NCBI RefSeq assembly: GCF_030013205.1
Contig: NZ_CP122648.1
Reading direction: 5' to 3' (one strand)
Source: Escherichia coli
Lineage (GTDB): Bacteria > Pseudomonadota > Gammaproteobacteria > Enterobacterales > Enterobacteriaceae
Length of the DNA: 64,000 nucleotides
In this document: positions 33,550 through 52,226 of the stretch, in pieces
Layout of the letters: each line of letters opens with the position of its first letter
How positions within the stretch are numbered: position 1 is the first letter of the stretch
The notes under the pieces: generated by a model
What the model saw: only the letters and a program-made list of their open reading frames with translations
Database searches by the model: none
What the model was told of the DNA's origin: nothing
Made by a program: the position numbers and the translations under genes

Positions 33550-36500
33550 CTATCCCCAATCCAGTCCTTGTGGCGAACTTGAAAATCCCGCCTCACGCAG
33601 CAGCGTAAACATCGGCGTTTGCCGGACCGGTAGGTCATTCACTTCTGTTAGCGTAAAGCGCAGCCGTGGTTCGCGACGCAGTGCGGTAGTCAGCGCGTGG
33701 AAAATCTCTGGGGCGAGTAATTCCTCTTTTTCCTGCCAGACCAGCATTTTTTTGCCACCTTGCGCCAGATAGAGTAACAATTTGCCGCCAGAAACGACCA
33801 CCAGCGCACCCGCCCGACGCGTTGGTATCAGCGTTGCCGGATGTGCAGGCCAGGGCAGAAGATTTCCCCATGCATTAGCCGGATCGTTGGCGGAGAGCGC
33901 CACTGGTGTATAGTGGCGCGTTTGCGCGGTTTGTGTCGCCAGATCGCGCAATCGGTCAATAGTCAGACGTTCAGCGAATTGCGCGCCACCCAGACCTTCT
34001 ACAAAACGACCTCGCATAATTCGCCCGGAGTCTTCCATACTTCGACAAAGCGTTTGCATCGATGGAAACCCGCCAGGGATATTTTCGGCTATCACCGCCT
34101 GACGACTGATGATGCCGTAGCGGTCGAGCATATTTTCCGCCAGCGCCAGCATCCTTTCGGTATCGTTTAGTGGCTCCACCTGCAATAACGACCAGCGTCC
34201 AGCCAGATTTGGTGTGTTGTAAGACACCCGCGGCGAGACGGGTTGTGCATAGACAGGACGCCCACGACGAGCCCGGTGACTGCGGCGAGTTGAGGTGCGT
34301 GCGTTGGAACTGCTGCGGGTGAGGGCGCGTAACGGTGCCCAAATATCGCTGGTGATGACGACTTGCCAGACCAGCGCCCATAACGCCTCTTGCAGTGCCG
34401 AGGGATCAACCGATTCGCCGATTTTATCGCGTATCCGTTGGCTGATTTGTTGTGCAAACCAGGCTCCTCCGTCAGCCAGAACCGTGACTATCGCTTGCTG
34501 CAGTGCCGAACGATTCGCCTGATTCGCTTCGGCGGGAGTGAACGATTCTGCAGCATATTCCTGTAGATGCAGTGCCACCAGGCCGTCATCTTCACCCAGT
34601 TTTTTTGCCCCGACCAGATAACCGCACCGGTTGCCAGTAATTCATCGAGCATTTCTGGCGAATAGTCGCGTACGCGGGCAGGCAGGATCTGGCTTTCCCA
34701 GAGTGAGGCGGGTAAACCGACTCCGGCAAGCTGTTCGATCACCCGCATGACGCCATCCACGCCCTCATAAACGCCTGGCGATGTTGAGGCAAAGAGTGCC
34801 GGGCTACCATCGGTGGCGGGTAATACGCCCTGACGTTCCAGCAGCAATCGCGCATAGGTCGTGGCCGCAACGGGACGTGTCGCTTCTCTGGCGGCTTGCA
34901 GCGAGCGCAAACGCAGACGACGAAATACTTCATCGCTCACCCAGATGTCTTGTTGCAGATTCATCACCAGCCCCTGTTCGCGCAGTTGCTGAAGTTGCTC
35001 TTCGACAATGGCAATACCGAGACTAAACTCATGAGCCAGTTGTTCAGACGTGACCAGAGCATGAGCCCGGAGATAGCGCAGAAAGAGGTCGCGAAGCGGG
35101 TAACTGACTCGGTGCAAATAAATCTCTGGCAGTGACTCTGGTAGTCGTACGCCGAGAGCATCGCGCAGCCTGGCGGCATCATCCATACAGGCAAGACGCT
35201 CCTGCCCGCTAATCATGGTCGGGAAGATTCGTTTTACTGCAAGAAGATTTTCCAGATACGACGCAATCTCTTCACTGCTGCCTGTATGTCGTTGCGCCAG
35301 GTCTTCAACGGTCATTGGCCCCAGTTCGCGCAGCAGGTCGAACAATCCTTCTTCACCTTTCGCTCTTCTGCCAGGAGCCAGTCGTTGCAACTCTTCTTCC
35401 ACCTGGCGAATGACCTGTGGGTCGAGTAATTCCCCCGGATCGACCTGTCCGAGTAGATTGCGCAGTAACTCGCTGTCCAGCGACAGTACGGATGCCCGGC
35501 GCTCTGCCAGCGGGGCGTCGCTCTGGTACATAAATTCCGCGACATAGCCGAACAATAAACTGGCGGCGAAAGGCGAGGGCGTAGTGGTCGTTACATCGGA
35601 TATTTGAATTTCGCCACCGTTCAGGCGACGCATCAAACGTTCCAGCGCGGGAAGATCATAAACATCTTGCAGACATTCGCGTAGGGTTTCGAGAATGACC
35701 GGAAAATCCGGATATCCCTGAGCGATTTCCAGCAACTGACTGGCGCGCAGCCGTTGTTGCCAGAGCGGGGTGCGATGGCCCGGCGTGCGGCCCGGCATTA
35801 ATAATGCCCGCGCGGCGCATTCGCGAAAACGGGCGGCGAAAAGTGCCGAGCTGCCTACCGCCTCGCGGACAATTTGCAGCAACTTTTCTGGTTCAAACAA
35901 AAAAATCGCGGCATCAGGCAATTTACCATCGGTGTCAGGAATGCGCGCAACAATGCCGTCATCACTGGCTACCACAGACGCGTCAGCGCCCCATAGTGCA
36001 TGTATTCGCCCGGCAATCGCCAGCGCCCAGGGTTCATGCACCCGTCTTCCATAGGGAGAGTGCAAAATAATACGCCAGTCACCAATTTCATCACGGCACC
36101 GTTCGAGGACCAGATGACGACTACCTGGAACGATGCCCGTCGCGTTGCGCTGCTCGTCAATCAACCCCTGAATATTGGCGATCGTATTTTCTTCTGCCAA
36201 CCACGGGGGAATAGTCCCGGAAAAGAACGCGCCATCCGCCAGTAAATGGAGAAAATCGCCGATCATCTCGCCTAATTCTGCCGGACGTCCGTTACCTTCA
36301 CCACGCCAGAAGGGAAGGCGGGCAGAACGACCTGGAGCAGGAGTCACAATCACCTGATCGCGGGTGATTTGCTGGATCCGCCATGAGGTAGCGCCGAGAG
36401 TGATAATGTCGTTCACCCGCGACTCATATACCATCTCCTCATCCAGTTCACCCACCCGCCGCGAACCGGCCTGTTCTTCACCTTCGGGTAATAACACGCT

Positions 36501-38165
36501 ATACATGCCACGATCCGGAATGGTGCCACCGCTGGTAACCGCCAACAGCTGAGCGCCAGGTCGGGCGGTCAATATCCCGGTCTCCCTGTTCCAGACCAGT
36601 TTTGGTCGAAAAGCAGAAAAATCGCCAGAGGGATAGCGCCCGGAAAGCATATCCAGCGTGGCGTCAAAAACACGTCTTGGCAGATCTTTCCACGGTGCGG
36701 CACGGCGTACGCGGGAGTACCATTCGTCTGCCTGTAATGCATCCATCGCCGCGGCGGCAACGGTTTGCTGCGCAAGGACGTCGAGTGGATTATGCGGTGG
36801 TGTCAGGTTTTCCAGCCTGCCTGCGAACATACACTCAACAATGACTGCGGAATCGACTAAATCACGCCTGGTTCGGGGGAAAAAAAGCCCTTTGGAGATA
36901 CCACCTACCTGGTGTCCGGCACGTCCAATGCGTTGTAACCCACTGGCAACAGAAAGCGGCGTTGCCACCTGAATCACCAGATCCACCGCGCCCATATCAA
37001 TCCCCAGTTCGAGACTGGAGGTTGCGACCACACAGCGTAATTCACCCGATTTCAGCGCCTGTTCGGTGATTGCTCGTTGTTCTTTAGAGACGGAGCCGTG
37101 GTGTGAGCGGGCAATAAAAATGTCGCTACTTTGTATACGGTTAGAGGTTGCGCCGGAGGTCGACTCGAAATGGACCGCATCAACGGCGATAGACGGGGAA
37201 CGCTGTAAGCGTGCGGCGTAAAGTTCATTCAATCGTGCCGTCAGTTTTTCCGCCAGCCCGCGTGAATTAGTAAAGACAATGGTCGAGCGATGGCGCAAAA
37301 CTTCATCAAGGATACCCGTTTCAATATATGGCCAGATGGAGCCTTCTCGGCCGGCATGGCTGTCTTCGCCGGTGCCGCTGGCGACCGATGAGACATCATC
37401 CATATTGGCGACCGGTACGACAATCCGTATCTGCGGATGGCGCATTGCGGGCGGGTTTACTACCGTAACCGGGCGATCGCCACCAAGAAATGCTGCAACA
37501 TCGCTGGCTGAGCGTACAGTGGCAGAAAGGCCAATTCGCTGTGCTGAGGTGTGGAGCAGCGCATCGAGCCGCTCCAGACTTAACGCCAGATGCGCACCAC
37601 GTTTACTGCCCGCTACCGCGTGGACTTCATCAATAATTACCGTTTCGACGCCGCGTAGCGTTTCGCGCGCGCGGGAGGTCAGCATCAGATAGAGTGATTC
37701 GGGTGTGGTGATCAGAATATCCGGCGGATTACGGGTGAGTTTGCTGCGTTCCTGTGCAGGCGTATCGCCAGTACGGATCCCCACGCGAAGATTGACTTCC
37801 GTTTCGCCGCGCCGCCGCCGTTCATCGGCAATACCCTGTAACGGGATCTGCAAGTTGCGCTGAACGTCGGTGCCCAGAGCTTTGATCGGTGAAATATAGA
37901 GGATGCGTGAGGTTTTACGTTTATGCGCCTCGCGGGTATCTTCGCCGCCTTCGCGGAAGAGCTGATCGAGGGCGTAGAGAAATGCTGCCAGCGTTTTCCC
38001 GGAGCCAGTCGGTGCAATCACCAGCGCATGTTCGCCTCGCGCCGCCACATGCCAGGTTTGCGACTGGACAGCGGTCGGCTGTTTAAAGGCGCGAAGAAAC
38101 CAGTCGCGGGTTGCCGGTGAAAACACGTCCGGCAGGGGCGATGAAAGGTTTGGATTATCTGCCAT
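33550..38165 (-). pseudogene. lhr: ATP-dependent helicase Lhr (DEAD/DEAH superfamily 2), interrupted by a -1 frameshift in a homopolymer near 34600-34606
   Basis: Two consecutive same-strand ORFs in different frames (34488..38165, 1225 aa with Lhr N-terminus; 33550..34578, 342 aa); total span is 4616 nt, one short of a multiple of 3; inserting one A in the run restores a continuous reading frame. Confidence 0.85.
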
Positions 38166-38257
38166 TAACGCTATTCCCCGTGAATATCATGCATGATGCG
38201 TGGAATAGCCTCACTATAGATGCCTGAATCATTGCATGTCATCAGGCATCGACTCGA

Positions 38258-51321: not shown

Positions 51322-51355
51322 GGGGAGTGAGAAATCACTCCCCTTGGTTTTTATA
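51322..51355 (+). terminator. intrinsic terminator (probably partial) between tyrS and pdxY
   Basis: GGGGAGTGA-GAAA-TCACTCCCC hairpin followed by TTGGTTTTTA. Confidence 0.65.
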
Positions 51356-51363
51356 CAGGGAAC

Positions 51364-52226
51364 ATGATGAAAAATATTCTCGCTATCCAGTCTCACGTTG
51401 TTTATGGTCATGCGGGTAACAGTGCGGCAGAGTTTCCGATGCGCCGCCTGGGCGCGAACGTCTGGCCGCTGAACACCGTTCAATTTTCTAATCACACCCA
51501 ATACGGCAAATGGACTGGCTGCGTGATGCCGCCCAGCCATTTAACCGAAATTGTGCAAGGCATTGCCGCCATTGATAAATTACACACCTGTGATGCCGTA
51601 TTAAGTGGCTATCTGGGTTCGGCGGAGCAGGGGGAACATATTCTCGGTATCGTTCGTCAGGTGAAAGCAGCAAATCCGCAGGCGAAATATTTTGCGATCC
51701 GGTAATGGGTCATCCGGAAAAAGGCTGTATCGTTGCACCGGGTGTCGCAGAGTTTCATGTGCGTCACGGTTTGCCTGCCAGCGATATCATTGCGCCGAAT
51801 CTGGTTGAGCTGGAGATACTCTGTGAGCATCCGGTAAATAACGTCGAAGAAGCGGTTCTGGCAGCGCGCGAACTCATTGCGCAAGGGCCACAAATTGTGT
51901 TGGTTAAACACCTGGCGCGGGCTGGCTACAGCCGTGACCGTTTTGAAATGCTGCTGGTTACCGCCGATGAAGCCTGGCATATCAGCCGTCCGCTGGTGGA
52001 TTTTGGTATGCGCCAGCCGGTAGGTGTTGGTGATGTGACGAGCGGTTTACTGCTGGTGAAACTGCTTCAGGGGGCAACGCTGCAGGAGGCCCTGGAACAT
52101 GTGACCGCTGCAGTATACGAAATCATGGTGACCACCAAAGCAATGCAGGAATATGAGCTGCAAGTGGTTGCTGCTCAGGATCGTATTGCCAAACCAGAAC
52201 ATTATTTCAGCGCAACAAAGCTCTGA
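51364..52226 (+). pseudogene. pdxY: pyridoxal kinase 2 (PdxY) interrupted by a -1 frameshift in a T-run near 51690-51693
   Basis: Adjacent same-strand ORFs 51364..51705 (113 aa) and 51705..52226 (173 aa) match the N- and C-terminal parts of PdxY; the expected ...[15 protein letters not shown]... needs TTTTT where the window has TTTT. Confidence 0.85.

Follow-up and report, generated by a model that had tools for sequence, protein, structure and literature searches.

The 64,000-nt window analysed here, a stretch of the Escherichia coli chromosome (contig NZ_CP122648.1) that includes ydiJ, sufABCDSE, lpp, and pykF, then lhr, rnt, gloA, and nemAR, and further on pdxH, tyrS, pdxY, gstA, dtpA, nth, rsx, and ydgJ, raises the question of whether two broken genes have been broken by the same cause. 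The genes are lhr, encoding the large helicase-related protein, and pdxY, encoding pyridoxal kinase 2. As the original prediction stated, each of them is disrupted because a mononucleotide run is one base short (A8 to A7 in lhr and T5 to T4 in pdxY), and when the base is restored a 1538-aa Lhr and a 287-aa PdxY are obtained. The two indels had been taken as one signal, either of homopolymer undercalling or of slippage in a strain deficient in mismatch repair (MMR). We found that pdxY T4 is inherited in 17 other assemblies and that only lhr A7 is private to the window; the two indels lie on different branches, and the joint interpretation therefore fails. Very probably, the pdxY and lhr frameshifts are independent events of different age that have no common cause, and the window carries neither an assembly-wide homopolymer problem nor a mutator signature. 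That both lesions fall in runs says little by itself, because the window contains 905 runs of at least 4 nt and single-base indels arise preferentially in mononucleotide runs (PMC8510543).

The window was compared base by base with four members of its clade, namely ETEC4079, K_EC180, EC556, and W13-16, over the whole 64 kb for ETEC4079 and over approximately 50 kb for the other three. Both loci were also surveyed in 5426 complete genomes, among which the lhr segment was matched in 4351 and the pdxY segment in 5101; the window's own genome is not part of this RefSeq complete-genome set. Alleles were counted as exact 81-mer matches, by which an A7, A9, or T4 allele with a flanking single-nucleotide polymorphism (SNP) is missed, so that all counts are lower bounds. 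The closest complete genome to the window is ETEC4079 (NZ_CP122643.1; Belgium, pig faeces), and over the full 64,000 bases the two differ by two substitutions and the single-base gap in lhr, and by nothing else. Both substitutions are missense A/T transversions and neither is a nonsense mutation: the one at 29295 (PurR I40F) is private to ETEC4079, and the one at 59762 (RsxC Q159L) is private to the window, where the L159 variant of RsxC has no exact record in a large gene index. With respect to all four clade-mates, the window-private differences are thus two in number, the lhr gap and the substitution at 59762. With only two missense SNPs and the lhr gap separating the window from ETEC4079, the earlier statement that the remaining genes are of expected length holds, and the ETEC4079 annotation of the corresponding region marks no pseudogene apart from pdxY.

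The pdxY T4 run at 51690-51693 is contained in AAATATTTTGCGATCC / AAATATTTTGCG. Its 81-mer was found in 17 of the 5101 matching complete genomes (the other 5084 had no exact match), and these 17 carriers take in all 15 listed nearest neighbours of the window at the lhr locus. Among the genomes listed below the 17 exact pdxY matches, all align over 82 bases, that is, with one extra T. The carriers are porcine strains of the O139:H1 type, and those that were fetched were confirmed to come from Belgium, France, Korea, and Japan. RefSeq marks pdxY as 'frameshifted' in all four that were checked, namely ETEC4079 (Belgium), W13-16 (France, wild boar, O139:H1), EC556 (Japan), and K_EC180 (Korea). In addition, the exact 113-aa product of the upstream pdxY fragment is also recorded in the draft assembly GCA_002133905.1 and in a contig of the Joint Genome Institute metagenome 3300076231. 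Considering that T4 is present in 17 independent assemblies, a draft, and a metagenome contig, the lesion must be inherited: pdxY T4 is a real, lineage-defining pseudogene and is neither an assembly error nor a recent mutation of the isolate. The T5 to T4 deletion would have had a single origin in the ancestor of the porcine O139:H1-type lineage of enterotoxigenic and Shiga toxin-producing E. coli and would have been inherited afterwards. It resembles the lineage-specific pseudogenes that are annotated as 'frameshifted' by the Prokaryotic Genome Annotation Pipeline, in that the identical one-base deletion occurs in every assembly of the lineage, and does not differ from them in kind. No publication on this pseudogene was encountered, although no literature search was aimed at it. 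The pair of frameshifts is ordinary, one member being an inherited pseudogene of known type that is covered by existing annotation practice and the other a lone event at a hot-spot run.

The repaired pdxY (one T inserted) encodes 287 aa that match positions 2-286 of the 287 positions of the PdxY equivalog NF004398 at 484.8 bits (cut-off 292), and the deletion would cut the enzyme after about 110 of its 287 residues. PdxK and the de novo synthesis of pyridoxal 5'-phosphate make PdxY, a salvage kinase, redundant. Its loss is probably tolerated because it is a redundant salvage enzyme, and pdxH, which adjoins the pdxY region, is intact. The two half-kinases are unlikely to be functional. The upstream open reading frame (ORF) ends in a TAA that shares bases with the start ATG of the downstream one (TAATG at 51703-51707), and both ORFs were called by gene callers in the draft assembly; translational coupling could be a route by which the C-terminal 173 residues of PdxY are produced.

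In contrast to pdxY T4, lhr A7 is private to the window within its clade. The four clade-mates have A8, which appears as a 1-nt alignment gap at window positions 34599/34600, and the 18 genomes with the A7 81-mer include no member of the 17-genome clade. On the coding strand, the window reads GGGGC-AAAAAAA-CTGGG at 34606..34600; ETEC4079 has T8 on the + strand at this place and an intact lhr of 4617 nt, and the intact gene of the clade-mates encodes 1538 aa. When compared with the 1538-position equivalog NF007284, the two Lhr fragments cover positions 1-1189 at 2657 bits and positions 1198-1538 at 694 bits, and the product of the A7 allele consists of Lhr residues 1-1188 followed by a 37-residue out-of-frame tail. 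By NF007284, the window gene is the ortholog of the E. coli Lhr studied by Buckley et al. 2023 (PMC10953399), in which aa 1-897 form the Lhr-Core helicase and aa 898-1538 the C-terminal domain, uracil-DNA glycosylase activity depends on Asp-1536, and the helicase and glycosylase activities are separable. Unlike in that protein, the reading frame in the window breaks at codon ~1189 and parts the helicase core from the portion bearing Asp-1536. If lhr A7 is real, the isolate may possess a helicase-proficient Lhr without the C-terminal uracil-DNA glycosylase active site. The 1225-aa truncated Lhr had no record in an index of 153 billion gene positions. The coordinates of these features are listed below.

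Table. Features of the window that bear on the lhr and pdxY frameshifts (window positions; strand as in the window)
Feature	Coordinates	Strand	Remarks
lhr (large helicase-related protein, 1538 aa if intact), frameshifted in the window	33550..38165	-	Two ORFs, NF007284; start 38165
lhr A7 run, coding strand (T7 on +)	34600..34606	-	A8 in four clade-mates and about 99.4% of E. coli complete genomes; loss at codons 1187-1189
lhr upstream ORF, 1225 aa	34488..38165	-	Full Lhr-Core (aa 1-897), part of C-terminal domain, out-of-frame tail
lhr downstream remnant, 342 aa	33550..34578	-	Lhr 1198-1538, including catalytic Asp-1536
pdxY (pyridoxal kinase 2), frameshifted pseudogene common to the whole lineage	51364..52226	+	ORF split, T4 allele in relatives
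pdxY T4 run (T5 in intact pdxY), deletion at codons 109-111	51690..51693	+	Sequence
pdxY upstream ORF, 113 aa	51364..51705	+	ORF list
pdxY downstream ORF, 173 aa, native frame from Met-115	51705..52226	+	ORF list
Sole window-private substitution	59762	-	A in the window; four clade-mates have T; RsxC Q159L
Control intergenic A8 run, ldtE/lpp	9547..9554	+	Length identical to ETEC4079
Intergenic A9 run, gstA/dtpA, longest in the window	52926..52934	+	Length identical in four clade-mates

In addition to the runs of at least 4 nt already mentioned, the window has 299 runs of at least 5 nt, 81 of at least 6 nt, and 27 of at least 7 nt. Runs of at least 8 nt number three if the restored lhr A8 is counted, of which lhr is the sole coding one and the other two are intergenic; a further 50 kb of ETEC4079 contains no coding run of this length. 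Among the 81 runs of at least 6 nt, lhr alone differs in length from ETEC4079. The change from A8 to A7 is best read as one event on this assembly's terminal branch, at the type of site where both replication slippage and long-read consensus undercalling strike most readily.

Such events at the lhr tract are found elsewhere in the species. Out-of-frame versions of it occur in 27 of the 4351 other complete genomes, 18 with A7 (-1) and nine with A9 (+1), and the remaining 4324 are in frame. Nine A7 carriers were fetched, in all of which lhr is annotated as 'frameshifted' (9/9); they represent several distinct 10-kb haplotype backgrounds, none of which is that of the window. Within the K-12-like background, the A7 carriers EC96, ETEC1734, and NCTC9040 lie amid dozens of otherwise identical A8 genomes, and within a B1-like background, the neighbours of 730V1 and of STEC388 that are as close as the other carrier, or closer, have A8. 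The latter two are separated by 3 SNPs in 10 kb, but sharing of A7 by descent was ruled out because each of them is nearer, or equally near, to A8 genomes. Thus, the -1 lesion of lhr is sporadic and recurrent, and is never shared by descent in the backgrounds checked.

With regard to the origin of the allele in the window, we lean towards an isolated consensus undercall. Four of the 18 A7 carriers come from one set of 94 porcine strains (odds ratio 13, p = 5e-4), for which R9.4.1 nanopore reads were the sole input to assembly with Trycycler and medaka, at a stated accuracy of Q50 (PMC10151945), and none of the nine A9 genomes comes from it. The same nanopore-only set supplies 11 of the window's 17 clade-mates, the closest one included, and at Q50 about 0.6 errors would be expected per 64 kb, a figure that agrees with the single event in the window. 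The lesion resembles the homopolymer errors of long-read-only assemblies (e.g., Oxford Nanopore Technologies R9.4.1 with medaka) in that one base is lost from a long A/T run in one assembly only, at a site where the same call was made in 4 of the 94 nanopore-only assemblies. However, it also departs from them, because the window shows one event rather than several and its intergenic A8 and A9 runs are intact. Homopolymer undercalling, as originally proposed, is therefore plausible for the lhr site alone. Two other possible correlates of the A7 calls were considered. Swine are the host of 7 of the 18 A7 carriers compared with about 12% of a spread sample (p = 0.003); since no significant excess is left without the four Belgian nanopore-only genomes (3/14, p = 0.16), it is attributed to the dataset and not to the host. 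Nanopore error linked to a methylation motif was rejected because neither GATC nor CCWGG adjoins the run. One of the carriers, ETEC1706, has a second -1 change in lhr (G5 to G4) besides A7 and an lhr of 4615 nt, which may reflect either more assembly error or further decay of the gene.

Several observations weigh against a pure artefact. The control intergenic A8 run (9547-9554) is shortened by one base in 8 of 5401 genomes, none of which is from the nanopore-only set, and the -1 rate at lhr is higher than this (18/4351; odds ratio 2.8, p = 0.016). Alleles of +1 also occur at lhr (9/4351), as would be expected from real bidirectional slippage in a dispensable gene, and such slippage therefore contributes to the out-of-frame lhr alleles of the population. 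Outside lhr the window seems accurate, the A9 run included. One event in 64 kb does not constrain the rate across the genome: its 95% Poisson interval is equivalent to some 2-440 events per 5.1 Mb. For a pure-error control, an essential gene with an A8 run was sought, but the 114 kb examined had none, and the A7 run of rpmI and the intergenic A8 run, both imperfect substitutes, were used in its place; the rpmI run, which is strongly selected, is shortened in 0 of 5425 genomes.

These data leave a substantial, though smaller, chance that the A8 to A7 change is a genuine and recent replication slippage in a repair-proficient isolate. In that case, the resulting 1225-aa Lhr would keep the helicase core (aa 1-897) but would lose its last ~350 residues together with Asp-1536, and hence its uracil-DNA glycosylase. 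The occurrence of the tract out of frame in both directions elsewhere (18 genomes at -1 and nine at +1), the 2.8-fold excess over the intergenic control, and the lack of any other run discrepancy in the window, A8 and A9 included, are all consistent with this explanation, and the rpmI result suggests that errors at slightly shorter runs are rare in the collection. The rate of indels in E. coli grows exponentially as runs lengthen, with hot spots at runs of 8 nt (PMC8510543), and lhr is dispensable, its deletion only rendering cells sensitive to stress, namely to oxidative stress and to azidothymidine (PMC10953399). The pattern at lhr is also similar to that in the E. coli mutation accumulation lines of the Foster laboratory (PMC8510543) with respect to the 8-nt hot spot and the sporadic -1 and +1 changes, although the published lines are MMR-defective and the window gives no sign of MMR deficiency. 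On the other hand, a real slippage would have to be placed on a branch with one private SNP in 64 kb, A7 being found in 0 of 17 clade-mates, and its exact product is recorded nowhere else. Moreover, near-identical genomes never share A7 in the two backgrounds searched, as they sometimes would if the mutation were real and neutral, and the -1 calls are enriched 13-fold in the nanopore-only dataset. When the points on both sides are weighed, an isolated undercall is preferred.

It is improbable that the assembly as a whole undercalls homopolymers, systematically dropping bases from runs so that none of its frameshifts could be trusted. The deletion in lhr does affect the longest of the coding runs and is not shared by the clade-mates, and related nanopore-only assemblies show the same call at this site. 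However, pdxY, which makes up half of the evidence offered for such a defect, is inherited in 17 independent assemblies, and the other 80 runs of at least 6 nt, as well as the ~900 runs of at least 4 nt, all match ETEC4079, with none differing from EC556 or W13-16 over ~50 kb. This part of the original prediction is thus not borne out in the window, where no run other than that of lhr differs from ETEC4079 and where the scatter of several -1 errors over coding and intergenic runs that would be expected is not seen. A true example is available in the same clade. In 50 kb, the assembly of K_EC180 (NZ_CP062203.1) shows four -1 deletions of its own at runs of 5-7 nt, compared with one in the window; they affect T5, T7, T6, and G5 runs that are aligned to window positions 12049, 12602, 19860, and 51630, in both coding and intergenic regions. 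One of them makes ydhS 'frameshifted' and another is a second lesion in pdxY. The K_EC180 pattern is that expected of homopolymer undercalling.

There is a further, quite unlikely, possibility that the A8 at Lhr codons 1187-1189 is a genuine hypermutable site that would repeatedly uncouple the helicase core from the C-terminal uracil-DNA glycosylase in natural E. coli, with a -1 allele that may be leaky through the heptamer A_AAA_AAC. Both expansion and contraction alleles, which are looked for at phase-variable loci, are present at lhr (A9 in nine genomes and A7 in 18). A functional reading, that the A-tract acts as a slippage-driven on/off switch or as a recoding site, at which a -1 ribosomal slip or an A added by RNA polymerase would restore full-length Lhr at a low level, is less credible still. 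The A7 allele (34597-34610, minus strand) reads GGG CAA AAA AAC TGG and so places the A_AAA_AAC heptamer in the zero frame; judged from these letters alone, a -1 shift there would be in the direction that rejoins the two ORFs, and alleles of both +1 and -1 are present in the population. Motifs of the A6C type serve -1 frameshifting in the insertion sequence IS1, and an IS1 copy with an annotated programmed frameshift is located in the same window. This element, of the IS1 family, lies between blr and ydgJ at about 62715-63412 by correspondence with the ETEC4079 annotation. Nevertheless, about 99.4% of genomes keep A8 in frame (4324/4351), so that the two-ORF layout is not conserved across lineages, and the out-of-frame alleles are singletons within A8 haplotypes in the three backgrounds checked rather than maintained lineages. 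No stimulatory structure or conservation is evident, though neither was tested for, RefSeq calls the A7 alleles plain pseudogenes in the nine genomes fetched, and we saw no evidence that A_AAA_AAC is used in lhr.

Equally hard to credit is a mutator, that is, an isolate without functional MutS, MutL, or MutH that accumulates indels in runs. Substitutions in MMR-defective strains are mostly transitions, but the private branch of this genome consists of one transversion and one indel with ~900 other runs unchanged, a comparison of low power as it involves a single SNP. A -1 change in an A8 run is indeed the commonest indel class in MMR-defective E. coli; however, in such lines base substitutions outnumber small indels about 5.6-fold (30,061 versus 5,324; PMC8510543), and one of the two indels alone belongs to this genome's own branch. 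The proposal of MMR-deficient slippage is therefore left without support by the window; mutS, mutL, mutH, and uvrD are located outside its 64 kb.

Since one of the two lesions is a lineage marker that RefSeq already annotates, the pair cannot be read as a flag before its members have been placed on the tree, and two frameshifts in one window should not be regarded as a sign of poor quality or of a mutator until this has been done for each. Those who work with this assembly can rely on the pdxY pseudogene but should regard the lhr frameshift as unverified; nothing in the window casts doubt on other genes. Among complete E. coli genomes, 'frameshifted lhr' calls arise repeatedly at the lhr A8 tract, above all where R9.4.1 nanopore reads were the only input, and the tract could be used as a cheap sentinel of polishing quality.

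Two further features of the window were noted. Within rsxC, the region 58160-58582 contains internal direct repeats at an offset of 96 nt, with about 88% identity over 327 nt, which appeared as off-diagonal BLAST matches. The 5' end of mepH, upstream of window position 34563, shows an in-frame length difference of 12 nt (828 vs 816 nt) by which the window clade, together with ETEC1738, is set apart from the haplotypes of the K-12-like and B1-like backgrounds.

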